Origin: Nitrospirota bacterium
GTDB lineage: Bacteria > Nitrospirota > Nitrospiria > 2-01-FULL-66-17
Direction: 5' to 3'
DNA length: 64,000 nucleotides
Assembly (NCBI GenBank): GCA_049325335.1
Contig: JBMOMC010000043.1
Coordinates: 80,262 to 144,261, forward strand
Within the stretch, counting starts at the first letter, position 1, and each line of letters begins with the position of its first letter. Shown piece by piece: positions 2,896 through 54,144 of this stretch. The notes under the pieces were generated by a model. It worked only from the letters and a program-made list of their open reading frames with translations, ran no database searches and was not told where the DNA came from. The position numbers and the translations under genes were made by a program.

Positions 2896-5163
2896 TCACA
2901 GCGTCGCGGCCCGGTAGCCCGGGCTGAGTCGACGCCGCGTCATCAGGTACAAAGCCACCCCGGCCAAAATCAGCAGGTCTGCGGCCTGCCACGGCCCCGG
3001 AGGGTCGCCGCCGTTCGGAATGATCATCCCGCACCCGCCGGCTTGGGGCGCGTCGGAAGACGGGGTGTTGTCCGAGACGAGCGAAGCGGACGCGTACACG
3101 GTGTTCTGCCGATTGCCGGACCGGTCGTACGACGCGGCCGAGTAGTAGTAGGTCACGTCGCTGACCAATCCGTGGTGCATCGTCTGCCCCGGTTCGTCCG
3201 GGTTCCCGGTAAAGTCGCCCAACAACACGCCGTCGGTCGGTCCTGACGGGTACCGATCGGTCCGGAACCGAATCTGCACGCCCGCAAAGTCCGCGTCGGA
3301 CGGGTTGGTCCACGTTAACGTGACGTGGGCCGACGCGCCGCTCGCCGAAAAATTCTGCACGTCTTGGGGCGGGGTGCTATCGGGCGATGAGGGAATCACG
3401 ACCGTGATGTCGCCGGACGCGGTCGAGTTGCCCACGGTATCCGCGCTCAACACGCGGAGGTGGTAGGTGGCGCCGGGGGTGAGTGCGGACAGGGGCTCAC
3501 GGTGCGCGGTCAACAGAGTGGCGTTGGCGACGGTGCGTTGCCCGTAGGCGGTGGTGAGGCCGTATTCAACCTGCGACGTGGCGGCTTCGTTGGTGGACCA
3601 GGTCACGACCGCGGAAGTGGGCGTGACGTCCGTGGTCGTCAGATTGAAAATCGACGGCGGGGTGGTGTCGGGCGCGGCGGAGGTGGTGAAGGTGCGGTTG
3701 CCGGAGACGGCGAGGTTGCCGGCGGCATCCGCGCTGCGCACACGGTAGTTGTAGGTGGTCGCGGCGAGCAGCCCGCTTACCGTCGCGCTATGGCTGGTCA
3801 CGAGCGTGGCGTTGAGCGTGGTGGAAGCGCCGTAGGCCGTGGTGGTGCCGTATTCGACCTGGGTGGTGGCGGCCTCGTTGGAGGTCCAGGTGATGCTGGC
3901 GCCGGTGCTGGTGATCGAGCCCGCGCTGATGCCGGTGAGCGTGGGCGGGGTGGTGTCGGGCGCGGCGGAGGTGGTGAAGACGAAATCCGAGGAGGACGCG
4001 TTGTTGCCGGCGGCGTCCACGCTGCGCACGCGGTAGTGGTACACCGTGGATGCGGTCAGGCCGGTCAGCGTGATGCTATGGCTGGTCACGCGCACAGCGT
4101 CCGAGGATGTCGCGCTGTAGGCGGTGGTCAGGCCGTAGTCGACCACGGAGGTGGAGACTTCGTTGGTGCTCCAGGTGATCACACTGCTGGTTGCGCTTAC
4201 GGTGCTGGCCGTGGTTCCGGAGATGACCGGCGGGGTGGTGTCGGGCGCGGCGGAGGTGGTGAAGGTGAAGTCGCCGGAGAGCGCGGCATTGCCCGCGGCG
4301 TCCGCGCTGCGCACGCGGTAATGATACAGGGTGGAGGCGGCAAGGCCGCTCACCGTCGCGCTGTGGCTGGTCACGAGCGTGGCGTTGAGCGTGGTGGAGG
4401 CGCCGTAGGCCGTGGTGGTGCCGTATTCGACCTGGGTGGTGGCGGCTTCGTTGGAGGTCCAGGTGATGCTGGCGCCGGTGCTGGTGATCGAGCCCGCGCT
4501 GATGCCGGTAAGCGTGGGCGGGGTGGTGTCGGGCGCGGCCGTTGTCGTGAACGTGTAGTCGGACGAGATGGCCACATTGCCGGTTGCGTCAAGACTGAGC
4601 ACGCGGAAGTGGTACAGGGTGGACGGCGTTAAACCGCTCAGGGTTCGAGCGTGGGTGGTGACCAGGGTGGAGTCAATGGCCGTGGACGAACCGTAACCGG
4701 TCGTGGTCCCGTATTCCGCCGCGGTGGTGGCGGCTTCGTTGGTGGTCCACGTGAGCGTGGCCCCGGTGGCCGTGATGCCGGATGCGGTGACCGAGGAGAT
4801 GGTGGGTGGCGTGGTATCGGTCACGATCTTCGTGCCTTCGTTCGAAGGGGTGCTGCTGTTTCCCACGAGGTCTTGCGCGGTCACGGCAAAGTAGTATGTC
4901 CCGGGGCCCAGTCCCGTCACCGTATAGGTGGTCACCATACCCACCGGGATCACGGAGGAGTAAACTCCCGAGCTGGTACCGTAGTGGACGGTGTAACCGG
5001 CCAAGTCGGACTCGGTGTTGGGGTTCCATGACAATATGGCGTCCGCTCCAAACGCGGGCGCGGCGCACAGTAGGAGTGACGCGAGGGCCCAAGGGGCCGC
5101 GGAGACACACCGGTTGTTCGGCGTATTCGGCGTGTGATGAGCGTTTTGACAATGACGATACAT
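2896..5163 (-). CDS. Secreted/surface multi-fibronectin type III repeat protein with C-terminal membrane anchor
   Basis: Signal peptide (…APAFG); about seven FN3-like modules (W.T.E…EYG.T…H..L.GL…Y.YRV.S.D..GN); C-terminal GGC + hydrophobic helix + RRR. Start 5163 chosen from an AAGAGG RBS. Confidence 0.85.
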   Translation of the reverse strand: MYRHCQNAHHTPNTPNNRCVSAAPWALASLLLCAAPAFGADAILSWNPNTESDLAGYTVHYGTSSGVYSSVIPVGMVTTYTVTGLGPGTYYFAVTAQDLVGNSSTPSNEGTKIVTDTTPPTISSVTASGITATGATLTWTTNEAATTAAEYGTTTGYGSSTAIDSTLVTTHARTLSGLTPSTLYHFRVLSLDATGNVAISSDYTFTTTAAPDTTPPTLTGISAGSITSTGASITWTSNEAATTQVEYGTTTAYGASTTLNATLVTSHSATVSGLAASTLYHYRVRSADAAGNAALSGDFTFTTSAAPDTTPPVISGTTASTVSATSSVITWSTNEVSTSVVDYGLTTAYSATSSDAVRVTSHSITLTGLTASTVYHYRVRSVDAAGNNASSSDFVFTTSAAPDTTPPTLTGISAGSITSTGASITWTSNEAATTQVEYGTTTAYGASTTLNATLVTSHSATVSGLLAATTYNYRVRSADAAGNLAVSGNRTFTTSAAPDTTPPSIFNLTTTDVTPTSAVVTWSTNEAATSQVEYGLTTAYGQRTVANATLLTAHREPLSALTPGATYHLRVLSADTVGNSTASGDITVVIPSSPDSTPPQDVQNFSASGASAHVTLTWTNPSDADFAGVQIRFRTDRYPSGPTDGVLLGDFTGNPDEPGQTMHHGLVSDVTYYYSAASYDRSGNRQNTVYASASLVSDNTPSSDAPQAGGCGMIIPNGGDPPGPWQAADLLILAGVALYLMTRRRLSPGYRAATL
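3660..4830. repeat. Intragenic tandem FN3 repeats (about 95-96 aa units); units 2 and 4 near-identical at DNA level
   Basis: PDTTPPTLTGISAGSITSTGASITWTSNEAATTQVEYG… occurs twice with a 573-bp offset (gatgccgg at 3928 and 4501). Confidence 0.9.
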
Positions 5164-5248
5164 GACACTGACCTCTTTTCGCATGCGGTGTACTCGTGTC
5201 CGGTGCGCCCAACCACGTCCCGGGCGCCTTGCTCAGGGCGTCTCTAAG

Positions 5249-6707: not shown

Positions 6708-6723
6708 TGGTACGCGAATTGCT
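6708..6723 (+). promoter_or_regulatory. Sigma-54 promoter upstream of the multiheme cytochrome/porin operon
   Basis: TGGTACGCGAATTGCT with GG-N10-GC spacing, in a 350-bp intergenic region. Confidence 0.65.
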
Positions 6724-6800
6724 TTCCTTACAGCCGGTGCTGTATCGACCAAACAGAATGAACAAGCAGTGATATCTAATACAATGTGAGGATCCGAAGA

Positions 6801-7934
6801 ATGTCCAGAGAGCGACAGACGATTCATTGGGGCGCACAGATCGGAGCCGTGGTTGTTGCTGGGTTCATGGCGTGGATCGGATGGGGGGCGCTGGTCGGGC
6901 ACGCGGCTGCGCCGTCTCCATCGTTCGACCATGACCGGACCTTGTTCCCGCTCACCGGGCAACATCGACAGGTCCAGTGCGAGGGATGTCATACCGGCGG
7001 ACGATACGAGAACCTGCCGACTCAATGCGTGGCCTGTCACAATGGCCAGCGCGCTCCAGGGAAGCCATCCAGTCATGTCGTGACCACGGCGCAGTGCGAT
7101 ACCTGCCATACCACGACAAGTTTTGCAGGAGCGGGATTTGCGCACGACGCGTCGGCGGCGGGGCGGTGCGACACGTGCCACAACGGACGGACGGCGATGG
7201 GGAAGCCGTCCAGCCATATCGCGACCACGGCGCAGTGTGACACGTGCCATACCACGCGGAGCTTCGAGGGCGCGGGGTATACGCACGACGCGAGCGCGAC
7301 GGGGCGGTGCGACACGTGCCACAACGGACGGACGGCGATCGGGAAGGGGTCCGGGCACATCGCGACCACGGCGCAGTGCGATACGTGCCATACCACGACA
7401 AGTTTTGCGGGAGCGGGATTTGCGCACGACGCGTCGGCGGCGGGGCGGTGCGACACGTGCCATAACGGACGGACGGCTCCCGGCAAGCCGTCCGGGCACA
7501 TCGCGACCACGGCGCAGTGTGATACGTGCCACAACACCAGGAGTTTCTCGGGGGCGACGTTTCGGCACGACGCGTCGGCGGCGGGGCGGTGCGACACGTG
7601 CCACAACGGACGGGCAGCTCCCGGCAAGCCGTCCGGGCACATTGCGACTACGGCGCAGTGCGATCAATGCCACCGGACAACGGCGTGGACGCCCGCGACC
7701 TACGCGAGCCATGCCAACCCGTTGCTGATCGGCGGACACTCCGGTCTCGACTGCAGTGTCTGCCATCCGCAATCGTTCACGTCCGCGTTTTATCGCGACG
7801 GCGTGCAATTCGGCTTTTGTTCCAATTGCCACCGCCGGGACTATGACCCAGGGAGGGATCAACACAACAACGCCAGCCTGCAGGTCAACGCCAACTGCGC
7901 CAATTGCCACGAACATGCGGGCTATCGGTGGTAA
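6801..7934 (+). CDS. Multiheme c-type cytochrome, 14 CxxCH
   Basis: 14 CxxCH counted; N-terminal hydrophobic/signal segment; extra His between motifs as likely distal ligands. Confidence 0.93.
   Translation: MSRERQTIHWGAQIGAVVVAGFMAWIGWGALVGHAAAPSPSFDHDRTLFPLTGQHRQVQCEGCHTGGRYENLPTQCVACHNGQRAPGKPSSHVVTTAQCDTCHTTTSFAGAGFAHDASAAGRCDTCHNGRTAMGKPSSHIATTAQCDTCHTTRSFEGAGYTHDASATGRCDTCHNGRTAIGKGSGHIATTAQCDTCHTTTSFAGAGFAHDASAAGRCDTCHNGRTAPGKPSGHIATTAQCDTCHNTRSFSGATFRHDASAAGRCDTCHNGRAAPGKPSGHIATTAQCDQCHRTTAWTPATYASHANPLLIGGHSGLDCSVCHPQSFTSAFYRDGVQFGFCSNCHRRDYDPGRDQHNNASLQVNANCANCHEHAGYRW
7040..7680 (+). repeat. 141-bp (47-aa) di-heme tandem repeat, about 4.5 copies
   Basis: Unit CDTCHNGR.A.GKPS.HIATTAQCDTCH.T.SF.GA.F.HDASAAGR repeats with high DNA identity. 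Confidence 0.92.
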
Positions 7935-9619
7935 TGAGACCCAAGGTCCATTGGTTGGCATCGGCGCTGCTGTGCGGCGCACTGGTGGTCCAGGGCTGCG
8001 GAGGGCCGACCAAACGGTTGCCGCCCGCGCCTCGATTCTCCAACGCCGAAATCGAAGCGTCGTATAAGAACGGGGAAGAGGCCTTGCTCAACGGTGACTA
8101 CGTGAAAGCTCGTCGGGTGTTGATGCAGATCATTTCTCGATTTCCCGGTGAAAACGATTTGGCGCAGGTCCAGTGGTTGATGGCCAAGACCTACGACATG
8201 GAGAACCGTCCGGTCGAAGCCGTGGCCGAATATAAGCGGTTCGTGGCCAACTACCCCGACCACCCCAACGCGCAGGACGCGGACGACCGAATCCGTCATC
8301 TGGAACAAGCGGCGCGGCCGAAGCCGAGCAAACCGGTCCGCGTGGTCGGGTCGCTGTCAACGGATTACGAATACGCCGAAGACTTGAGCCCAGAGCCCCT
8401 GACCACGCTGAACCGCGTGACCACGCGGCTCGACGCCCAGATTCGCAATCTTGACGAGGGACGGGGGAAAGTGGTGGTGAGCGCGCTGCGGTCATTCGAT
8501 TTGCAAGACCAGGGTGACGATCGCGCTCGGCTTCAGAAGTTGTATGGGGACTGGCGCAATCCGGCCGATCGATGGTCGGTGAGAATCGGGCGTCAGCCGT
8601 CCACCCCCGGAGCGCTTTCGACGCGGTACGACGGGGCCGAACTCCATTACCGAGTCATTCCAACGGTGGCGTTCGACGTTGCCGCGGGTTTCCCGGTGGA
8701 TTTTTTCCGCAGCGGCGCGTTGTCCACCGACGCGCGATTCTACGAAGCCGGGCTCACTGCGGCCGATGTCGGCGGCGCCACCGGCCGGATCTACGCAATC
8801 CGGCAGTTTGCCGAAGACGTCCTCGACCGTGAGGCGGTGGGCGGCAACTTCCAGGGGGGGTGGGGACGGTTCGGCGCGAACGGCAACGCGGACTACGATA
8901 TCAACTTCGGGGAGTTTAATGACCGGTTCCTTTCGATAGAGTACGCGCTCCGGGAATCACTCACCGTCACGCTCGCCCGCGATGCGCGAAACGATCCATA
9001 CCTTCAGATGAGCACCGCGCTGCTCGATGATACCGCCACGGCGGCGACCCCGCCCATTACCACCGTGTCTGATTTGCTGGCGCTGGCGGGACAAAACGAG
9101 GACACGGTCAGAGACATGGCTCGAAACCACACGATCGATTCAACCGACTCGCGGGTCGGGCTTCGGTGGACGATCGGCCCGCACTGGTTGTCCACGGCGG
9201 ATTATTCCCATACCGTCAGCCAGATCCCGCAGGCGGGCGGGGGCCGAACCCGACAAACGTTCGACCGGGTATCACTCTACGCGGCTCAGTCGAACGCGTG
9301 GCGCTTCCCGGATACGACATCCGCGTTGATCATCCATCAGACCGGGTCGGAGTTGGTCATCGACACGGTATCGCTCGTCGCCGGGGAACGGCTCGCGCCG
9401 TCGCTCCTGCTCCAACTAAAGGCCCGCGTGGAATACACGGGTTTTAAGAACGGAAGCGCGACAGATTCCATTCGGTACGTACCGGGCGTCGCGCTGAACA
9501 TGGAACCCACGCGGTTTCTGTTGTTGACGGCCGAGGGCGAGTATACTCACGAAAACCGGTTCTATATGCCCGGGCGTACCGCGATCTTGTCGCGGTTGAA
9601 CGTCACCGTGCTGTTTTAA
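7934..9619 (+). CDS. Lipoprotein with BamD/YbgF-like TPR domain fused to an outer-membrane beta-barrel (putative porin)
   Basis: Lipobox VQG-C; TPR motifs (YKRFVANYPDHPNA); amphipathic strands; ends LNVTVLF (terminal Phe); TAATG coupling to the cytochrome gene. Confidence 0.75.
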   Translation: MRPKVHWLASALLCGALVVQGCGGPTKRLPPAPRFSNAEIEASYKNGEEALLNGDYVKARRVLMQIISRFPGENDLAQVQWLMAKTYDMENRPVEAVAEYKRFVANYPDHPNAQDADDRIRHLEQAARPKPSKPVRVVGSLSTDYEYAEDLSPEPLTTLNRVTTRLDAQIRNLDEGRGKVVVSALRSFDLQDQGDDRARLQKLYGDWRNPADRWSVRIGRQPSTPGALSTRYDGAELHYRVIPTVAFDVAAGFPVDFFRSGALSTDARFYEAGLTAADVGGATGRIYAIRQFAEDVLDREAVGGNFQGGWGRFGANGNADYDINFGEFNDRFLSIEYALRESLTVTLARDARNDPYLQMSTALLDDTATAATPPITTVSDLLALAGQNEDTVRDMARNHTIDSTDSRVGLRWTIGPHWLSTADYSHTVSQIPQAGGGRTRQTFDRVSLYAAQSNAWRFPDTTSALIIHQTGSELVIDTVSLVAGERLAPSLLLQLKARVEYTGFKNGSATDSIRYVPGVALNMEPTRFLLLTAEGEYTHENRFYMPGRTAILSRLNVTVLF

Positions 9620-9679
9620 CGGCGACAATCGTCGCCCGCGGGTCCAGAGGGTCCGCGTCACCAACAAGGAGGATATGGG

Positions 9680-9985
9680 ATGCCGAAAGAATACGCCGTG
9701 GCCAAGGTCGCCGAGGTGGGACCGGGCGCGCGCAAGCTGGTGTCGGTGAACGGCGCCAACGTCGTGCTCGTGAATCAGGGCGGAGCATTCTACGCGATCA
9801 ACAACGAGTGCCCGCACGAGGGCAACCCCCTCTGCGACGGGGAGCTCAAGGGCTGCGCGATCGTCTGCCCCACGCACGAGTGGGAATTTTCGCTCAAGAC
9901 CGGGGAGTCCGACGAGCACCCGGGATTTCAGGTCGATACCTATCCCGTGCGCGTGGACGGCGCCGAGCTCAAAATCACGATGTGA
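9680..9985 (+). CDS. Small Rieske-type [2Fe-2S] ferredoxin, no export signal
   Basis: CPHEG…CPTHEW.F.L.TG motif; strong RBS AAGGAGGA. Confidence 0.93.
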   Translation: MPKEYAVAKVAEVGPGARKLVSVNGANVVLVNQGGAFYAINNECPHEGNPLCDGELKGCAIVCPTHEWEFSLKTGESDEHPGFQVDTYPVRVDGAELKITM

Positions 9986-10044
9986 CGGGGCTGGAACGAG
10001 CCGGGAATCATCACGGTCAGTGGGCCCGAAAGGAATAGCCTGAA

Positions 10045-10941
10045 GTGGATGCCGCAGTTTCTCAAACCGACGTTGCTCCGATCCGCCTGCAATGGATGCG
10101 GCCATCGTCCGCCGCGCTCACCGCGCTCAAGTACCTGGGGTTCACGCTCATCTGGGGCGTGGGCCCCGTGTATGTCATGGCGTTCGAACCGTATGAATCC
10201 GAATCCTGGTTCGGGTTGGTGCTCGGGATCGCGGGCCTCTCCTGCATGCTCGTGGGAGCGGTTATGTACGTGGTGCGTAAACATGTGGCCCGGTTCAAAA
10301 AAATCGGCAAACTGAACACGTGGTTGTCCGTCCACATCGCCTTGTGTTTGGCGGGGCCCACGTTCATCATGTACCATGCGACGTTTAATATTTTGGCGCC
10401 GAATTCCGGGGTCGCGATTTATAGCATGTTGATCGTGGTGGGCAGCGGCCTGTTCGGCAAGTACATCCACGGCCATGTCCTGCAGACCCTGGGCGGCGAA
10501 CGGGCGGGCCTCAAGCAAATCGAGAAACAGCGAACGCTGATCGACCTGGACGTTGCGGGTCAGAACGGCGTGCCGCAGAGCCTGCTGCAGAAGATCCAAC
10601 AGTTCTTCGAAGTCCGGACCACGAGCAAACACGTCGGGGTGGTCAAGTCGTTCTACCTGTTGGGCAAACTGGATTGGCTCGAGCGCCGGATTCTCCGGCA
10701 GGCCTCGGAGGAGTTCAAGGCCGTACTGCTCGCGCGTCGCGAGCTGCGGCCGCAGCAGCGGGCGACGCTCGAAGTCGACGGGCTCCAGGGCCTGGCGATC
10801 AAAACCGGTTTTGAAAAACGCATTGCCTTAATGGAGGCGACCGAACGTGCCTTTCGTTTCTGGCACCATTTGCACGTGCCGCTCTTGGTCGTCCTGGTGC
10901 TGACCGTGTTGGCCCACCTCACGGCGGTCCTGCTCTTCTAG
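10045..10941 (+). CDS. Inner-membrane protein, di-heme cytochrome b/ferric-reductase-like
   Basis: About 5 TM segments; two H-x13-H pairs (HIALCLAGPTFIMYH, HVPLLVVLVLTVLAH). Confidence 0.75.
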   Translation: MDAAVSQTDVAPIRLQWMRPSSAALTALKYLGFTLIWGVGPVYVMAFEPYESESWFGLVLGIAGLSCMLVGAVMYVVRKHVARFKKIGKLNTWLSVHIALCLAGPTFIMYHATFNILAPNSGVAIYSMLIVVGSGLFGKYIHGHVLQTLGGERAGLKQIEKQRTLIDLDVAGQNGVPQSLLQKIQQFFEVRTTSKHVGVVKSFYLLGKLDWLERRILRQASEEFKAVLLARRELRPQQRATLEVDGLQGLAIKTGFEKRIALMEATERAFRFWHHLHVPLLVVLVLTVLAHLTAVLLF

Positions 10942-10945
10942 CCGT

Positions 10946-12685
10946 GTGGGGTTGATCGCCCGGCGGGTGCTCCGCCGCCTTCCTGTCTTTCTGGTGGTGA
11001 TCGCGCTCTGGCCCGCCGTGGCCTACGGCCTCAGCCTGTTCAAAGGCGTGATGCCGGGCAAGGTCGCCGAACCGCACGCCAAAACCGAGGAGGAGTGCTT
11101 TGATTGCCACGCCGCATTGGGCAAGTCCTTTATCGCCAAGTGCGTGGCCTGTCACAAGGAAGTCGGCGTGGACCGACAGAAGAAACGGGGGTTCCACGGC
11201 AAAACCGACACGGAACGATGCGAGCGCTGTCACGCGGAGCACAAGGGGCGCGCGTTCCAGCTCATCACGTTCGACTCCAAAACTTTTGATCACACCAAGA
11301 CCGAATACCGCTTAGAGGGTAAGCACCAGGATGTGCGGTGCGAGCAGTGCCACGTGAAGCCCAAATTCCGCGAAACCCCCTCCGCGTGCGTGGCCTGTCA
11401 CCGCAAAGACGACTATCACAAGGGCACGCTCGGCGACGCCTGCCAGCAGTGTCACGTCCCGGCCTCGTGGAAGGAGATTCGTTTCGACCACGCCAAAACC
11501 AAATTTCCATTGGAGGGCAAACATCAGCCGGTCACGTGCGAGCAATGTCACGTGAAAGGGTTGGACGCGAAAGATACCCCGACCGACTGTGTGGCCTGTC
11601 ACCGCAAAGACGACCCGCACAAGATGATCTTGGGCGAGCGGTGCGAGAGTTGCCACACGGCGGCGGATTGGAAACGGAGCACGTTTAATCACGACACGAC
11701 CGACTACCCGCTGACGGGGAAACACCGGCCCGTCGAGTGCCTGGGCTGCCACAAAACGCCCAAACTCGCCGAAACCCCTCAATCCTGCTACGCGTGCCAT
11801 AAGAAGGACGATCGGCACAAGGGCTCGCTGGGAACGCAGTGCGCGGACTGCCACACGCCCACGGACTGGAAGCAATTTCGCTTTGATCACTCCAAGACCA
11901 AGTATCCGCTGCTGGCCAAACACCAGGAGGTGGTGTGTGAGAAGTGCCACGCCAACGAGCGGTACAAGAACACGCCGATGGAGTGCGTGGCCTGCCATAA
12001 GAAAGACGACGAGCATAAGGGGTTGCTCGGTCCGCGCTGCGAGAATTGTCACGTGGAGCGGGGATGGAAACAGACCACGTTCGATCACGACAAGACCGAT
12101 TTTCGTCTGCGCGACGCGCACGTGACGGTCAGATGCGACGCGTGCCACACCACGCCGAAGCTGAAGGAGACGCCGACGACCTGTCACGGCTGCCATCAGA
12201 AAGACGACGTGCACAAGACCAAACTGGGTGATCGCTGCGAGCAATGCCACGACGTCAAGACCTGGAAAAAGGCGCCGCGATTCGACCATCAGAAGACCGA
12301 GTTTCCGTTAAAAGGTAAACACGAACCCGTGCCGTGCAAGAAGTGTCACGCCACCAAGCTGTTCGCGGACGCGGCAAAGGTCTGCGTCGAGTGTCACAAG
12401 AAGGACGACGAACATAAGGGGCGGTTCGGAGCCCGATGTGAGCGCTGCCATACGGATCAAACCTGGGAGCGCAAGGACTTCGACCACAAAAAAGAAGCCG
12501 GGTACGCGCTGGACGGCGCGCACAAGAAGGTCAAGTGTCTGACGTGCCACACGCGTCCGCTGTTTAGCACCAAGACGTCGACGCTCTGCGGCGTTTGCCA
12601 CCGTAACGACGATGCCCACGACGGCGCGCTCGGCCCTCGCTGCGAACGCTGCCACACCGTGGAGACGTTCGTCATCCGGCGATAA
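10946..12685 (+). CDS. Periplasmic multiheme c-type cytochrome, 24 CxxCH
   Basis: 24 CxxCH counted; seven triheme repeats FDH.KT.FPL.GKH..V.CxxCH…CxxCH.KDD.H.G.LG..CxxCH; signal peptide. Confidence 0.95.
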   Translation: MGLIARRVLRRLPVFLVVIALWPAVAYGLSLFKGVMPGKVAEPHAKTEEECFDCHAALGKSFIAKCVACHKEVGVDRQKKRGFHGKTDTERCERCHAEHKGRAFQLITFDSKTFDHTKTEYRLEGKHQDVRCEQCHVKPKFRETPSACVACHRKDDYHKGTLGDACQQCHVPASWKEIRFDHAKTKFPLEGKHQPVTCEQCHVKGLDAKDTPTDCVACHRKDDPHKMILGERCESCHTAADWKRSTFNHDTTDYPLTGKHRPVECLGCHKTPKLAETPQSCYACHKKDDRHKGSLGTQCADCHTPTDWKQFRFDHSKTKYPLLAKHQEVVCEKCHANERYKNTPMECVACHKKDDEHKGLLGPRCENCHVERGWKQTTFDHDKTDFRLRDAHVTVRCDACHTTPKLKETPTTCHGCHQKDDVHKTKLGDRCEQCHDVKTWKKAPRFDHQKTEFPLKGKHEPVPCKKCHATKLFADAAKVCVECHKKDDEHKGRFGARCERCHTDQTWERKDFDHKKEAGYALDGAHKKVKCLTCHTRPLFSTKTSTLCGVCHRNDDAHDGALGPRCERCHTVETFVIRR

Positions 12686-12946: not shown

Positions 12947-15900
12947 ATGCCGGTTGCCCGTAACACATCCATGACGGTTGTTGCGCTGGCCGCGGCGGTC
13001 GTGGTGTTTGCGATCGGCAACTACGGTCTCGGATTTTCGCAATGGACGGTCCACTGGTGGGCGGACATCGCGTGGACCCTCGCGTCTGCGCTTACCGGTT
13101 GGAAATGCCTCGACACCGCCAAGCGCCGGCAGGGGCCGTACCGAAAAGCCTGGATCCTGTTCGGGGCCGCGTGCGGGGCCTGGTTTCTGGGCATGCTCTA
13201 CTGGGACTATCGGGAATTGGTGTTGCGAGAGGTCACGCCGTTTCCCGCCTTCTCCGATGTCGGGTTCATGCTGTTCGCGCCGCTGTGTATGGCCGGGATG
13301 TTGTGGTATCGAGCCGAAACCCCGACCGCGCGGGTCACCCTGAAACAACTCTGCAACCTCGGAATCATCGTGTCCGCGATCACTATTTCCGTACCGGTCA
13401 CCGTGATCGGCGCCATGCGGGCCTCACCGGAGTCCCCGTTGTATCTGGCGGCGGCCGTGACCTATCCGATTCTCTATCTAACGGCGTTTGTGTTCGGCGT
13501 CGTCTGTCTGTGGCTGTACGTGTGGGGAGAAAATCGGAAGGTCTTTTTATTGCTTGTGGCCGGGGTAGCGGTTCACGCCGCGACGGACACGTTGTACGCG
13601 GCAGCCTTGTTGGGCCGGACCTATGAGGCCGGGAACTATCTGGACGTGTACTGGATCGCGGGGTTCGCGTTGATTTATGCGGCGGCCGCAACGCAGGACG
13701 CGGTGAGCGCCGACCTCGCCGGCCATGACCGGGCAGAAGAGGGTCGGCGGGGAGGCGAACTGGAGAACCTCGTCTCCGCGGCCACGCTTGTGGTTGTCGC
13801 CACCGTGTTGTACGTCTTTCGAGCGAACCTACAAGGCGGCATCGTCACCCATGTGTTTGCGTTCGGGGTGATCGGGATCGCCTTCGTGGGGATCAAGGAG
13901 TGGTGGGGAAATCGTGTCGAGCGGATTCTGCAAGGCGATCTCTCCTCATCGCTGAACGCCTTGGCGCGCAATGAAGCCCGACTGGCCGGTATCTTGGAGA
14001 TTGCTCCGGAGGGGATCATTTCCGTGGACGCCGGGCAGCGAATCGTGCTGTTTAATAAAGGCGCTGAAAGTCTCTTCGGCTATTCCGAACACGAAGCGCT
14101 CGGCCACCCCATCGACTTGTTGATTCCCGATCGCTTACACGCCGCGCACCGCGCTCACGTGGCTGCCTTCGCGGCGGCCCCCATGACGTCGCTTCGCATG
14201 GATGAGCGCCGGGAGATCGCGGCCCGCAGAAAAGACGGGACCGAGTTCCCGGCGGAAGGGTCATTGTCCAAACTGATCTTGGGTCGCGACGTGTTCTTCA
14301 CCGTGGTGATCCGGGACATCACCGAACGCCGACGCGCGGCGGAGCGGTTACAGCACCGGCTCGAACTGGAGCAGACCATTGCCGCGATTTCAGCCCGCCT
14401 CGTCAATCTCCAGTCGGAGACGGCGCATGACGGCATTCAAGATGCCGTGCGAACACTCGGCGAGTTCTTAGGGGGTGATCGGAGTTATGCGGGTCTGTTT
14501 TCCGTGGATCGCGAAACGATCGCGTACACCGTTGAGTGGTGCGCGGAAGGGGTCCAGCCCGGGAGCGAGCGGTTTAACGACGGGTCGCGCGAGCGGTTCC
14601 CGTGGTTCATGAACACGATGCGGAAGGCGGAGATCGCACGTGTTCCGCGTCTCTCGTCGTTGCCGTCCGACGCCGCCGTGGAGCAACGGGCTTTCCAAGA
14701 GGCGGGCGTGCGGTCCGCACTGTTTGTCCCGATGGTGCACGCGCACTCCGCCATGGGTTTCCTCGCGGTCGAGTCGGTTCGGGATGAAACGGCTTGGACT
14801 GAGGAGGACGTCAACCTGCTCAAAGTCGTGGGCGAGATGTTGACCAATGTCCTGCTCCGCAGGCAGGCCGAGCAAACGTTGGCGGAGCAAGTGATCCGCG
14901 ACCCCCTCACCAATCTCTATAATCGGCGCTATTTTGCCCATCGTATCCACGAGAGCCTCATGCTGGCGGAACGCAACGGCCAGTGCCTGGCGGTGTTGGC
15001 GTGTGACTTGGACCATTTTAAACGCGTCAACGATACCCAGGGCCATCAAGCGGGGGATCAGGTCCTGAAAGACGTGGCGGGACGGGTCAACGAGTCCATT
15101 CGAGGGGGGGACAGCGCGTTCCGGTGGGGAGGAGACGAGATCACCATCCTACTGACCAATACCAGTAAGGAGGGGGTACTGGTCGCGGCGCAACGCATCC
15201 GGGACAGCGTGAGAAAACTGAAGGCTGCGTCGGAGAGCGGCCTGGATATCAGCATCGGCATCGCTTTGTACCCCGAACACGGACGAACCGCGGACGAGCT
15301 GGTCCGCCTCGCGGACCGCGCGTTGTACATCGCCAAAAAAGGCGGCGACAAAATTCATATCGGGGAAGAGGAGTACGCCCTGAAAGAGGGCACCATCCGC
15401 GTGGTATTTCAACCGGTGCAGGATCTCCGTCTCAACGAGCCCACGGGATTTGAGGCGCTCAGCCGTGACGCCCAGGGCAAACTCAGCATCCTGGACTTGT
15501 TTAAGAAGTACCAGGCGATCGGGTTATTGGATGACTTAAAACGCCTCTGTTTTACGAGTCAGATGAAGACGGCTCAAGCCGTGGGCCTGAAGAAGGTCTT
15601 CATCAACGTGGATTTTAAGCTGCTCGGCAAACTCCAGCCGTCCCCCGTCCCGACGGGGTTGGACGTCGTGCTCGAGATTTCAGAGGCGGAAGCGCTGCAT
15701 GACGTGGAGAACCATCTGGCCATTGCCAAGCAGTGGCGGGCGTACGGCTATAAGTTGGCCATCGATGATTTCGGGGCGGGCTTCGTGTCCCTGCCGTTTA
15801 TCGCCCGGTTGATTCCCGAACACATCAAACTGGACCGTTCCACCGTGCTGCAGGCGGTGGAGTCCACGCGGTTCAGGAGAATCTTGAAAGATCTGCTGTT

Positions 15901-16084
15901 GGGGCTTCGCAATTGCTCGACCGAGGGGATCATTGCGGAAGGCATCGAGTCCGCTGAGGAGTTGGAAGTGATGCGGGAGTTGGGCATCTATTTGGTCCAG
16001 GGGTATCTGTTGGGCAGGCCGAAAGAGCTAACACCACTGGCTGAGTCCGATTTGCCGCAACAATCCGCGAAGAACGCCGCCTAG
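12947..16084 (+). CDS. Membrane sensor with PAS-GAF-GGDEF-EAL domains (c-di-GMP enzyme)
   Basis: Multi-TM N-terminus; PAS (FNKGAE…RRKDG.EFP…RDITE); GAF; DPLTNLYNRR, DLDHFKRVND, GGDEI; EAL, DDFGAG, IKLD, EGIE, QGY. Confidence 0.92.
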   Translation: MPVARNTSMTVVALAAAVVVFAIGNYGLGFSQWTVHWWADIAWTLASALTGWKCLDTAKRRQGPYRKAWILFGAACGAWFLGMLYWDYRELVLREVTPFPAFSDVGFMLFAPLCMAGMLWYRAETPTARVTLKQLCNLGIIVSAITISVPVTVIGAMRASPESPLYLAAAVTYPILYLTAFVFGVVCLWLYVWGENRKVFLLLVAGVAVHAATDTLYAAALLGRTYEAGNYLDVYWIAGFALIYAAAATQDAVSADLAGHDRAEEGRRGGELENLVSAATLVVVATVLYVFRANLQGGIVTHVFAFGVIGIAFVGIKEWWGNRVERILQGDLSSSLNALARNEARLAGILEIAPEGIISVDAGQRIVLFNKGAESLFGYSEHEALGHPIDLLIPDRLHAAHRAHVAAFAAAPMTSLRMDERREIAARRKDGTEFPAEGSLSKLILGRDVFFTVVIRDITERRRAAERLQHRLELEQTIAAISARLVNLQSETAHDGIQDAVRTLGEFLGGDRSYAGLFSVDRETIAYTVEWCAEGVQPGSERFNDGSRERFPWFMNTMRKAEIARVPRLSSLPSDAAVEQRAFQEAGVRSALFVPMVHAHSAMGFLAVESVRDETAWTEEDVNLLKVVGEMLTNVLLRRQAEQTLAEQVIRDPLTNLYNRRYFAHRIHESLMLAERNGQCLAVLACDLDHFKRVNDTQGHQAGDQVLKDVAGRVNESIRGGDSAFRWGGDEITILLTNTSKEGVLVAAQRIRDSVRKLKAASESGLDISIGIALYPEHGRTADELVRLADRALYIAKKGGDKIHIGEEEYALKEGTIRVVFQPVQDLRLNEPTGFEALSRDAQGKLSILDLFKKYQAIGLLDDLKRLCFTSQMKTAQAVGLKKVFINVDFKLLGKLQPSPVPTGLDVVLEISEAEALHDVENHLAIAKQWRAYGYKLAIDDFGAGFVSLPFIARLIPEHIKLDRSTVLQAVESTRFRRILKDLLLGLRNCSTEGIIAEGIESAEELEVMRELGIYLVQGYLLGRPKELTPLAESDLPQQSAKNAA

Positions 16085-51474: not shown

Positions 51475-51993
51475 ATGACGGGCAGCCGCGACGAATCAGG
51501 CGTCACCTTCCTTGAACTGCTCGCCACCATGGCGATTATCATGGTTTTAGTCTCCGTGGCCATGCCGCTGTCAAAAATCACGGCCAAACGCGCCAAGGAA
51601 ATCGAACTCCGCCAGGCGCTGCGTGAGATACGCACCGCGCTCGACCAGTTCAATTACGATTGGAACCGCGACGGCGACCGACTGATCGGCCCCTTGTGCC
51701 AAACCAATCAGTTAAGTTGCCGCGAGGTGTCCAGCGTCAACGGGTATCCGAAGACCCTCGAAACCTTGTTGCGGGTGGATCTGTCCGGGGAGGCCGCGAC
51801 GATCCGGGGCACGACCGTGAAGCGGTATTTGAGAAAAGTTCCCACCGACCCCATGACGGGTAAGGCGGAATGGACCGCGCGCTGTTATACCGACGACCCT
51901 GATGAGACCAGTTGGTGCGGGGACGACGTGTTTGACGTGCATTCGGAGAGCGAGGGCACGGGACTCGACGGCACGCCCTACCTGGAGTGGTGA
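51475..51993 (+). CDS. Type II secretion pseudopilin (GspG-like)
   Basis: Prepilin site G|VTFLE; KE.ELR..L.EIR.ALD, YP..LE.L, YLR..P.DPMTG. Confidence 0.88.
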   Translation: MTGSRDESGVTFLELLATMAIIMVLVSVAMPLSKITAKRAKEIELRQALREIRTALDQFNYDWNRDGDRLIGPLCQTNQLSCREVSSVNGYPKTLETLLRVDLSGEAATIRGTTVKRYLRKVPTDPMTGKAEWTARCYTDDPDETSWCGDDVFDVHSESEGTGLDGTPYLEW

Positions 51994-52040
51994 CGGCGGG
52001 ACGGGTTGACATGATCGGGGTCCATTTTCTACGCTCAGGT

Positions 52041-52427
52041 ATGATGAACGGTCGCTTGACCAGGTTTAGCGCGGGTGCGGTGGCGCTGTGCGTCGCGATC
52101 GGTCTTGGCGCGCTCGCTCCCCCAGAGGTCCGCGCCGAGTACGGCGACATTGTGATGAACCGCGAAGCGGAAAAGGCCGAGATGCCGCCCGTCATCTTCC
52201 CGCACTGGTTTCACCGGATTCGGTTCAAGTGCAAGGTGTGCCACGAAGACATCTTCCTGATGAAAGCGGGCGCCAATGAAGTGACCATGATCAAAATTAT
52301 CAAGGGCGAATATTGCGGCAAGTGCCACAACGGCCGCATCGCCTGGGCCCCGCTGTATTGCGACCGCTGCCACTCCGGCAAGAGCCAGTACAGTATTACG
52401 CCGTCCGAAGGCGGGTCCTCGCCGTAA
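52041..52427 (+). CDS. c7-type triheme cytochrome c
   Basis: Signal peptide; FPHWFH, CKVCH, CGKCH, CDRCH. Confidence 0.9.
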   Translation: MMNGRLTRFSAGAVALCVAIGLGALAPPEVRAEYGDIVMNREAEKAEMPPVIFPHWFHRIRFKCKVCHEDIFLMKAGANEVTMIKIIKGEYCGKCHNGRIAWAPLYCDRCHSGKSQYSITPSEGGSSP

Positions 52428-52431
52428 CCCC

Positions 52432-53109
52432 GTGCGCCTTCGGCACGGAATCGAGCGGTGGGTCGTCGGCCTCCCGCTCCTGGTTGCGGTCGGGACCGTG
52501 TTGCCCGGCGGGACGAAGGCCCAACCGCCGGCTCCTCCCCCGGTCGGCGCCCCGCAATCATCCGCCGACACCGACCAGGAACGTCTGCAGCGGATCAAGG
52601 AAAAATTGAAGTCCGTTGATCCGTCGATGGTCATTTATCTGGACAGTCGGGGCAACATCGCGGGAACCGGCGATCCCGGGGGAGTGGTGGGGCGCGCCGA
52701 GATTGTGGGCAAGGGGGCGCATCCGCCGGCGTTGGAGCTTGCCGGGTTCCCCAAGGACCGCTACGATTTGGTGGATTGGGCCGCTTCCGTGTTGCAAGGC
52801 AAGATCAAACCGCGCGACGCCGTAGACCCGAGCGTTCCCGAGGTCCCGCCGTTCGATCTGGACGTGGTCATCATCACCAAGAGCAAGTTCCAACCCGACG
52901 TGTTGTTCTCGCACAAGGTCCACACGTTGTGGTTGGCGTGCGAGAATTGCCATGAGAAAATTTTCAAGAAAAAAGCGGGGGGGAATCCCGAAATGCACAT
53001 GACCAAAATCGCGGCGGGTCAATACTGCGGGCGTTGCCACGACCGCGTCGCGTTTCCCTTGACCGATTGTTTGCGGTGTCACGTCTTGGACAAGGACCGA
53101 CCGAAATGA
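52432..53109 (+). CDS. c7-type triheme cytochrome c with N-terminal extension
   Basis: FSHKVH, CENCH, CGRCH, CLRCH; P.D…VDW motif. Confidence 0.9.
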   Translation: MRLRHGIERWVVGLPLLVAVGTVLPGGTKAQPPAPPPVGAPQSSADTDQERLQRIKEKLKSVDPSMVIYLDSRGNIAGTGDPGGVVGRAEIVGKGAHPPALELAGFPKDRYDLVDWAASVLQGKIKPRDAVDPSVPEVPPFDLDVVIITKSKFQPDVLFSHKVHTLWLACENCHEKIFKKKAGGNPEMHMTKIAAGQYCGRCHDRVAFPLTDCLRCHVLDKDRPK

Positions 53110-53474
53110 GGCGACTGCGGCGCGCGACGGTCGGACTGGGTCTGGTCATCACCGCGTGGCTGCCGGTCGCGGTCTCGAGCGGTCAGGAAGCCCGAACCGT
53201 GGACGTGATTATTGCCAAGGACAGTTACGCGTTCGACCCCGCGCGCGTTGCGATCGAGGTCGGCGACACCGTCCGGTGGCGCAACGAAGACACCCGCCGG
53301 CACCTGACATCGAGTATCCCGGGGTTCGGACCGGATACGAACCTGGAAATTTTCTGCGAAGACTTGTATGCGGGCAAGACCTGCAGCCACACCTTCGAGA
53401 AGCCGGGTCGGTATCCCTACTTTTGCTTCGTGCACAACCGAATGCAGGGCGAGGTCGTTGTCGTTGATCGGTAA
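53106..53474 (+). CDS. Cupredoxin (plastocyanin/azurin-like)
   Basis: F.P…I.VGDTV.W.N.D…H; PG.Y.YFCFVHNRM.G.V.V type-1 Cu ligands. Confidence 0.9.
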   Translation: MRRLRRATVGLGLVITAWLPVAVSSGQEARTVDVIIAKDSYAFDPARVAIEVGDTVRWRNEDTRRHLTSSIPGFGPDTNLEIFCEDLYAGKTCSHTFEKPGRYPYFCFVHNRMQGEVVVVDR

Positions 53475-54144
53475 GGGTGGCGCCGGTCGGCGCGCGCGAT
53501 TGCTCCTGATCGTCATCGCACTGGGCGTCACGGTTCTCGGCTGTCGGAGCGCGCCGCAGTCTCCCAAAACGCCGTTGGAGTCCGCGCTTGAATCCGTCAC
53601 CGCGCCGGCCGAGGGCGAAACGCCCGTGCTGCCGCCCGGCGTGACGTTGGGCGAGGAGCCGGTGGAAGGGTTGTCGCCGACCGCGGTGGGGGTGCCGTCT
53701 CAGGATCCGGTCGAAGCCGCGGAGGGATCGGGGATCGAGCCGCATCCGCTGGCGTTCGCCTTCCTTCCGAAAACCGAACAGGGATACGTGGATTGGGTCG
53801 GCGCGGTTGAGTTGGGCGTGATCCGTCCCATAGACTCCCTCGATCCCCTGCGCATGGTGTTGGAGCCGATGAACTTCGACGTCGTGTTCCCGGTGAAGGG
53901 CGACCTGCCCGACGTGGTCTATCCCCATTACGGACACACGTTGTGGTTGGATTGCAAAAACTGCCACCCCGGTATTTTCGTCATGCGCGCGGGCGCCAAT
54001 CGCGTGACCATGGCGGCCATCGCCAAAGGGGAGTTTTGCGGCCGCTGCCACGGCAAAGTGGCGTTTTCGTTGGCCGACTGTAACCGCTGCCATTCCCGTC
54101 CCAAGCCGGGCGGACCGTTTATCATCCCACGCGCCGACGGATAG
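53464..54144 (+). CDS. c7-type triheme cytochrome c lipoprotein
   Basis: Lipobox VLG-C; YPHYGH, CKNCH, CGRCH, CNRCH; TTG start inferred. Confidence 0.88.
   Translation: MIGKGGAGRRARLLLIVIALGVTVLGCRSAPQSPKTPLESALESVTAPAEGETPVLPPGVTLGEEPVEGLSPTAVGVPSQDPVEAAEGSGIEPHPLAFAFLPKTEQGYVDWVGAVELGVIRPIDSLDPLRMVLEPMNFDVVFPVKGDLPDVVYPHYGHTLWLDCKNCHPGIFVMRAGANRVTMAAIAKGEFCGRCHGKVAFSLADCNRCHSRPKPGGPFIIPRADG

Follow-up and report, generated by a model that had tools for sequence, protein, structure and literature searches.

A 64,000-nucleotide stretch of a Nitrospirota genome (contig JBMOMC010000043.1, positions 80,262 to 144,261; hereafter, the window) carries five co-oriented genes that almost certainly form a porin–cytochrome conduit of the PCC3 type, with a gene for a soluble Rieske [2Fe-2S] ferredoxin embedded between the porin gene and the gene for the inner-membrane protein (IMP). 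We propose that the IMP is a di-heme protein fed from the cytoplasm and that the conduit exports electrons from NAD(P)H, a reading to which we give an even chance. PCC3 itself is already known; for the Rieske replacement described here we found no earlier paper in a literature search whose coverage leaves out most subscription papers. Published systems are cited from portions of the papers named, and statements about them apply to those portions.

A PCC3 gene cluster with an embedded Rieske gene

As defined by He et al. (2017; PMC5566968), PCC3 comprises a porin, two multiheme cytochromes (one extracellular, one periplasmic), and an IMP of ~300 residues with five helices, an SGXXG motif and two WX3HX13H motifs. 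The same authors' criteria for the cytochromes are a Thr/Ser/Ala/Gly-rich sequence with repeats for the extracellular type and a low residue-per-heme ratio. Periplasmic PCC3 cytochromes with 21, 24 and 27 hemes were described by Hoover et al. (2023; PMC9900912), and PCC3 is common among iron oxidisers (PMC5566968, PMC9900912). The genes in the window are as follows.

6801..7934, + strand: cytochrome A, 14-heme c-type, 377 residues; PCC3 extracellular type as judged by the criteria of He et al.
7934..9619, + strand: probable outer-membrane porin, 561 residues; lipobox-like Cys22, BamD/TPR-like domain, terminal Phe
9680..9985, + strand: soluble Rieske [2Fe-2S] ferredoxin, 101 residues; PF00355, C44-x-H46 and C63-x-x-H66
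10045..10941, + strand: PCC3 IMP, 298 residues; two WX3HX13H, SGXXG, probable trans-membrane di-heme b protein
10946..12685, + strand: cytochrome B, 24-heme c-type, 579 residues; PCC3 periplasmic type

The porin, both cytochromes and the IMP lie in one cluster, and all published IMP motifs are present. The same four protein families, as recognized by BLAST, cluster in other Nitrospirota and in metagenome loci. An earlier note on this DNA had called the cluster a PCC3-like operon; the five co-oriented, tightly spaced genes and the 14- and 24-heme cytochromes that it reported are confirmed from the open reading frames (ORFs). The start that it gave for the first gene, 6708, has to be corrected, since it falls on a TGG codon followed by two in-frame stops, and the real start is ATG at 6801 (or GTG at 6786). 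Successive ORFs are set apart by a 1-base stop/start overlap and by 60, 59 and 4 nt, and on spacing alone the five genes would be co-transcribed, the single contrary hint being a weak hairpin at 9591–9610; the spacers flanking the Rieske gene in three relatives measure 52–74 and 32–59 nt. A sigma-70 scan returned no promoter-like site, and terminator-like sites numbered 13 against 6.7 ± 3.0 in shuffled sequence, those between genes being unconvincing. The source genome (G000; 3.25 Mb, 99% complete) holds a single copy of the cassette.

The two cytochromes together contain 38 CxxCH motifs (14 + 24); in 2000 residue shuffles, the mean was 0.17 for cytochrome A and 0.32 for cytochrome B, with maxima of 2 and 3. 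The published cytochrome criteria are matched by the 24 hemes of cytochrome B, by 23–24 residues per heme (~23 in cytochrome B) and by the 43% Thr/Ser/Ala/Gly of cytochrome A, which also has tandem repeats and an N-terminal hydrophobic segment and whose heme number differs among relatives (12, 14 and 28). Outside CxxCH, cytochromes A and B have 17 and 25 His, sufficient for bis-His ligation of every heme in a wire-like arrangement.

The gene at 7934–9619, described in the earlier note as a lipoprotein with TPR and β-barrel parts, encodes a lipobox-like VQGC motif (Cys22), a BamD/TPR-like N-terminal domain at residues ~41–115 (PF13525, E = 1.5 × 10−9) and ~420 residues ending in Phe that probably form an outer-membrane β-barrel porin. 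Its Atlas neighbours at 0.91–0.92 carry outer-membrane barrel families, and alternation in the family profile reached 24 windows against 18.4 ± 2.6 in permuted columns (8 of 500 permutations). Alternation in the single sequence was near background (16 versus 15.2), the single-sequence AlphaFold2 model was of low confidence (predicted local distance difference test score, pLDDT, 35.5), barrel Pfam matches were sub-threshold and confined to 3 of 18 family members, and a profile search of the porin alignment against PDB sequences gave nothing significant.

The cassette and published PCC3 have in common the porin, the Thr/Ser/Ala/Gly-rich repeat cytochrome, a 21–27-heme cytochrome and the five-helix IMP, and PCC3 copy 1 of Sideroxydans CL21 likewise pairs 24 with 14 hemes (bioRxiv 2025.02.27.639646). 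The cassette differs in its gene order (cytochrome–porin–Rieske–IMP–cytochrome, with the Rieske gene embedded), in its shorter, lipobox-bearing porin, in its Nitrospirota host, in the long branch of its IMP, and in that the usual iron–sulphur (FeS) flavoprotein neighbour was not found.

The Rieske protein scores 65.7 bits against PF00355 (cut-off 20.3), is acidic (isoelectric point 4.9) and has no export signal, anchor or other hydrophobic segment, in agreement with its earlier description as signal-less. Its closest solved relatives are the naphthalene, biphenyl and toluene dioxygenase ferredoxins, and it falls below the equivalog cut-offs for NirD (49.1 versus 74.65 bits) and HcaC (64.2 versus 113 and 48.1 versus 150). 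Four genomes of its seven-genome family carry the cassette (G000, G108, G231 and G402), and in all four the Rieske gene occupies the slot between porin and IMP. In each of three comparisons, no other gene of the five is as well conserved (95, 81 and 80% identity, against 91, 80 and 76% for the IMP and 76, 68 and 56% for the porin), and the codon changes of the Rieske gene relative to G108 are 24 synonymous and 5 non-synonymous. In G171 (98% complete) the flanking genes are intact, and neither the cassette nor a Rieske orthologue was found. These observations make us confident that the Rieske protein is functionally part of the PCC3 system here.

Beyond the family, the picture changes. Among 401 Nitrospirota genomes, G000, G108 and G231 are the only ones with matches at the orthologue level (at least 80% identity); no further hit exceeds 48%. 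No Rieske gene was found in the other Nitrospirota PCC3 loci that were fetched, nor in any of 80 metagenome IMP loci, which were the best of 498 confirmed; because the patterns used to draw them came from 20 consensus-like IMPs, the sample favours the canonical clade. The main text of He et al. (PMC5566968) does not mention a Rieske protein. The earlier note's impression that Rieske is not a standard PCC3 part is thus supported, and the synteny check that it proposed gives a divided answer, with the gene absent from distant loci and present in every PCC3-bearing genome of the family. Elsewhere in the source genome, on contig C2 (148606–149271), a gene product joins a Rieske domain to ~90 further residues at the C terminus, and each of the four genomes of the genus conserves it.

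The inner-membrane protein and its proposed cytoplasmic partners

The IMP carries W93-x3-H97-x13-H111, S134-G-x-x-G138 and W273-x3-H277-x13-H291, so the two H-x13-H pairs reported earlier are H97/H111 and H277/H291. Across 133 aligned homologues, three of these His are invariant and H291 is present in 132. The AlphaFold2 model (pLDDT 88) has five membrane helices matching uncharged segments, plus a long helical insert, although helix 1 is weak if judged by hydropathy alone; the His pairs sit on helices 3 and 5, with helix 4 between them carrying SGXXG. Loop 78–91 contains six Lys/Arg and no acidic residue, and the 130-residue insert at 140–272 is basic, helical and conserved, which by the positive-inside rule would place both in the cytoplasm. 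H97 and H277 would ligate a cytoplasm-side heme and H111 and H291 a periplasm-side heme, and the IMP is probably a trans-membrane di-heme b protein. The Rieske protein is acidic, whereas the IMP loops predicted to be cytoplasmic are basic.

The IMP is like NOX, FRE and MsrQ–Fre, the last described as a split NOX-like system (PMC5676040, PMC12525009), in its four putative heme-ligand His, its two H-x13-H pairs and their placement on helices 3 and 5. It differs in having five helices and the long helical insert, in its proposed donor (an FeS protein instead of flavin) and acceptor (a multiheme wire), and in matching neither PF01794 nor any other Pfam family at E ≤ 0.01. Two other proteins, and not the IMP, were found when the genome was searched with PF01794. 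The IMP, which lies outside this family by profile, may act like a ferric-reductase domain without being classed there. A fold search with the model gave no match at E ≤ 0.001 and was dominated by unrelated long helices, and the comparison with cytochrome b561 (4o6y; Z 7.8, root-mean-square deviation 3.2, 133 aligned) was within background. Nothing significant came from a profile search of the IMP alignment against PDB sequences, and no match from a plasmid collection.

The usual neighbour of PCC3 is a gene for a ~435-residue FeS-flavoprotein in which a single N-terminal membrane helix and then a basic stretch precede a ferredoxin-like domain and a TrxB/YpdA-like FAD/NAD(P) domain. Upstream sequence of at least 3.6 kb was available for 39 metagenome IMP loci, and 36 of them contain this gene (33/36 clusters at 90% identity, 24/26 at 60%). 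Among the 401 Nitrospirota genomes, 32 have a full-length IMP, 27 the flavoprotein and 25 both, and the flavoprotein occurs in 2 of the 369 others; kin genomes are not independent, so these counts are patterns and not statistics, and the figure of 32 leaves aside 23 genomes, out of 55, whose IMP matches are weak and partial (E > 1 × 10−9). The partial matches inspected belong to pentaheme or PCC4-like loci. Of the two flavoprotein-only genomes, which are 78–81% complete, one carries a 38-heme gene next to the flavoprotein gene. IMP genomes without the flavoprotein are G000, G108, G231, G146, G020, G029 and G011. When every candidate was scored, none in G000, G108, G231, G171 or G402 matched the FeS-flavoprotein over its full length; a 33% partial match lies within an 834-residue frame of G402.

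In another Nitrospirota genome, G269, the same slot encodes a 413-residue FAD reductase and a 76-residue Fer4 ferredoxin. Matches to this reductase at E ≤ 1 × 10−70 occur in 5 of the 401 genomes (G269, G000, G108, G231 and, more weakly, G377), and within the family the reductase is also found in G402 and G401 and not in G171 or G403. The copy in the source genome (C2:432156–433370) is 46% identical to the G269 protein, and its closest solved relatives are ferredoxin reductases of P450 and dioxygenase chains (3lxd, TodA, BphA4). The closest solved relatives of both the Rieske protein and the reductase thus come from dioxygenase chains (BphA4–BphF, TodA–TodB, ThnA4–ThnA3), from which the present pair differs in that the gene for the ferredoxin is part of a cytochrome operon and that no ring-hydroxylating oxygenase (alpha subunit) was found in the source genome. 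In this family, the Rieske protein and a soluble reductase have apparently replaced the membrane-anchored FeS-flavoprotein.

In a tree of 51 IMPs, the stem of the Rieske clade is long (1.13), flavoprotein-associated lineages flank the clade on either side, and the G269 IMP falls in the sister group (support 96/84); the root is a midpoint only, so that a derived position of the Rieske clade is likely rather than proven. In two of eight longer IMP homologues (P0288 and P0289), a 4Fe-4S domain is fused N-terminally to a full IMP (hhalign 99.5–99.7%). P0285 and P0286, in which the IMP runs into cytochrome sequence, appear to carry frameshifts and were not counted as fusions.

Three unrelated FeS carriers, the flavoprotein-fused 4Fe-4S domain, the Fer4 ferredoxin and the Rieske protein, therefore lie beside the IMP or are fused to it, and the simplest explanation is that the cytoplasmic face of the IMP takes electrons from FeS proteins. 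The earlier note had proposed the Rieske protein as the cytoplasmic partner of the b-heme protein. This idea gains indirect support from the FeS-flavoprotein in most other PCC3 loci, while a complex prediction of IMP and Rieske with hemes and 2Fe-2S scored 0.00 and speaks neither for nor against contact. We consider it reasonably likely that the Rieske protein is the direct partner of the IMP. The notion of a cytoplasmic partner proves broader than first thought, and the Rieske protein looks like a family-specific replacement.

Other IMPs show further variation. In one Nitrospirota family they have low-complexity Ala/Pro-rich N-terminal extensions of 250–480 residues (L052:7189–9498, L053:7022–9184, L045:7291–8928), and at these loci a Sel1/ankyrin-repeat gene is coupled to the flavoprotein gene. 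The IMP loci of family f22 (L050, L051, L055 and L057) have single cytochromes with 48–68 CxxCH, apparently the periplasmic and outer cytochromes merged in one chain.

Direction of electron flow and alternative explanations

In the route that we propose, NAD(P)H would reduce the BphA4/TodA-type FAD ferredoxin reductase encoded on contig C2, which would reduce the operon's Rieske ferredoxin and, through it, the cytoplasm-side heme b (H97/H277). Electrons would then pass to the periplasm-side heme b (H111/H291), into the 24-heme periplasmic wire and through the porin with its 14-heme surface cytochrome to an extracellular acceptor, for which Fe(III) or Mn oxide, humics and a partner cell are candidates. 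Rieske and IMP would work together like a split NOX/ferric reductase or MsrQ–Fre, the FeS carrier at the IMP being itself reduced by NAD(P)H via flavin, as in split NOX-like systems. NADH has a potential of −320 mV, and the inside-negative membrane potential aids outward electron movement and opposes inward movement. Dioxygenase Rieske ferredoxins receive electrons from NAD(P)H and have potentials of −112 to −173 mV (PMC4814904), and Fe(II) lies near 0 mV (PMC9040806). The downhill step from NADH to Rieske and the membrane potential would thus both help export and oppose inward flow from Fe(II), so export is favoured; provided that the Rieske protein is the direct partner of the IMP, we regard it as the likely direction. 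The earlier note held that direction is unreadable from sequence; carrier type and energetics nevertheless lean to export. Both PCC3 clusters of Sideroxydans ES-1 are down-regulated on Fe(II) (PMC8788666), and its PCC3 proteins are at middling, substrate-independent levels or undetected (PMC11429942). The sampled metabolism of the source genome (no COX1, weak partial NiFe-family matches only, one bd-like oxidase and three molybdopterin-family matches) does not fix the direction.

Several observations weigh against this proposal. NOX hemes have potentials of about −225 to −265 mV, and if those of the IMP are alike, the step from Rieske to heme would be uphill and need the membrane potential. 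The IMP has no PF01794 match, and a weak terminator-like hairpin (9591–9610) lies immediately ahead of the Rieske gene. The four Rieske genomes are one family and hence represent one evolutionary event. The reductase gene lies apart from the cassette; the source genome encodes two further soluble Rieske proteins that the reductase could serve, and the reductase also occurs in G377 (97% complete) and G401 (65%), neither of which yielded a PCC3 cytochrome. The association with a cytoplasmic partner also has gaps: 3 of the 39 metagenome loci lack the FeS-flavoprotein, 4 of the 32 IMP genomes (G146, G020, G029 and G011) show neither partner in the stretch fetched, G269 has an unlinked flavoprotein in addition to its in-operon ferredoxin and reductase, and in G321 the slot is empty and the flavoprotein unlinked. 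The IMP belonging to one of the PCC3 copies of Sideroxydans CL21 is up in iron-oxidising cells (bioRxiv 2025.02.27.639646), and the published PCC3 papers propose a quinone link for the conduit (PMC5566968, PMC9900912).

That published model is the main rival and, in our judgement, unlikely but to be taken seriously. The IMP would be a quinone-active cytochrome b joining the conduit to the quinone pool, as the di-heme b subunits of hydrogenases do, and the Rieske protein would be accessory: a redox sensor, a repair or cofactor-supply factor, or a co-regulated passenger. Beyond the coupling proposed by He et al. (PMC5566968), it draws on the IMP loci that show no cytoplasmic partner and on MsrQ, which binds ubiquinone as well as flavin (PMC12525009); signal relay is among the roles open to a Rieske ferredoxin (PMC4814904), and the gene after the cassette encodes a GGDEF/EAL sensor. 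It leaves unexplained, however, both the recurrence of three unrelated cytoplasmic FeS carriers at the IMP and its conserved 130-residue basic insert. Less probable still is the reading of the Rieske protein as a displaced NirD serving the NirB-like nitrite reductase (C7:252843–255812) and unrelated to PCC3. No Rieske gene adjoins nirB and there is a weak NirD match, but this falls well short of its cut-off, the Rieske orthologue tracks the PCC3 cassette, and the two other Rieske proteins of the genome are available for the role; we find this hardly credible.

Two further alternatives keep the Rieske–IMP partnership and change its use. The chain could run inwards, from extracellular donors through the wire, IMP and Rieske to the reductase and NAD(P)H or cytoplasmic enzymes. 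Heme wires are reversible, but the inside-negative membrane potential works against such flow. PCC3 is common in iron oxidisers (PMC5566968, PMC9900912) and the source genome has another porin–cytochrome cluster (C1:236–247 kb), yet Fe(II) near 0 mV (PMC9040806) cannot reduce a carrier near −150 mV, so only very low-potential donors would suffice, and PCC3 fell on Fe(II) in ES-1 (PMC8788666); we consider inward flow improbable. We judge equally improbable an export that is not respiratory, a low-flux service in assimilatory iron reduction, envelope repair, oxidant defence or redox overflow. Outward flow from NADH would spend membrane potential and conserve no energy, the NOX, FRE and MsrQ relatives do such jobs (PMC12525009, PMC5676040), and the middling, substrate-independent protein levels in ES-1 (PMC11429942) are consistent with them. 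Against this, 38 hemes plus a cytochrome at the surface make a costly outfit for maintenance, and no iron-uptake or repair genes were seen adjoining the cassette.

Neighbouring genes, related systems and significance

Directly downstream of the cassette, at 12947–16084 of the window, lies a gene for a membrane sensor with PAS, GAF, GGDEF and EAL domains, found also in G108 and not at that site in G231, G402 or G171. Divergent from the cassette, a secreted fibronectin-III repeat protein (2896–5184, − strand) is syntenic throughout the family, including G171. Farther along (51987–54144), three genes for small triheme (c7-like) cytochromes and a cupredoxin-like ORF come directly after secretin and pseudopilin genes of a type II secretion-like kind, and the source genome has similar triheme genes at C43:176913–177913 and C7:276196–277005. 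The second porin–cytochrome cluster (C1:236334–246983, locus L077) encodes doubled-CxxCH cytochromes with 5, 4 and 11 hemes, a pair of NHL-repeat proteins, and what may be a peptidyl-prolyl isomerase and a porin of 670 residues, and we take it to resemble the Uet/undecaheme type. Two tandem similar genes at C43:350768–357932 encode proteins of ~1150 residues with 5 CxxCH each, and a nitrate/nitrite cluster (C7:252843–261163, locus L076) encodes a molybdopterin protein, a fused Fer4–DmsC protein and a 989-residue NirB-like protein without an adjoining NirD gene.

Links between conduits and cytoplasmic redox proteins have precedents. In PCC4, which has a related IMP, an Fe-S gene lies upstream of the IMP gene and is annotated as fused to it in one genome (PMC5566968), and a ferredoxin-NADP+ reductase gene lies near 7 of 11 porin–cytochrome clusters in one decaheme group, for which the authors suggest potential functional coupling (PMC13264449). 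The cytochromes of these systems differ (4, 5 or 10 hemes, or a large decaheme), and the sections on them describe neither a soluble Rieske ferredoxin nor an NAD(P)H-fed PCC3 mechanism (PMC5566968, PMC13264449). Within the coverage of our literature search, queries joining porin, multiheme cytochrome, Rieske ferredoxin and extracellular electron transfer found no paper, PCC3 with Nitrospira found only He et al., and PCC3 with 4Fe-4S found one relevant paper, whose passages on them leave the two unlinked; passages of PMC13386937 and PMC9040806 add no cytoplasmic partner for PCC3.

More broadly, PCC3 might be a quinone-independent NAD(P)H-to-surface wire of Gram-negatives, with a split NOX-like gate, a 30–60-heme conduit and interchangeable cytoplasmic plugs, for which a dioxygenase-type reductase/Rieske pair was co-opted here; we hold this generalization to be possible, somewhat short of even. 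By apparently swapping the cytoplasmic partner for an FeS carrier unrelated to it, this family offers a natural experiment, one that favours a cytoplasmic over a quinone connection. The soluble ferredoxin (101 residues), the reductase, which is likewise soluble, and the IMP (298 residues) would make a simple system in which the direction and inner connection of PCC3 become testable. PCC3 is commonly counted among the candidate iron oxidases. If electrons flow outwards from NAD(P)H, genome-based calls of iron oxidation from PCC3 would need revision, and PCC3 genes would instead mark electron export by a new route.

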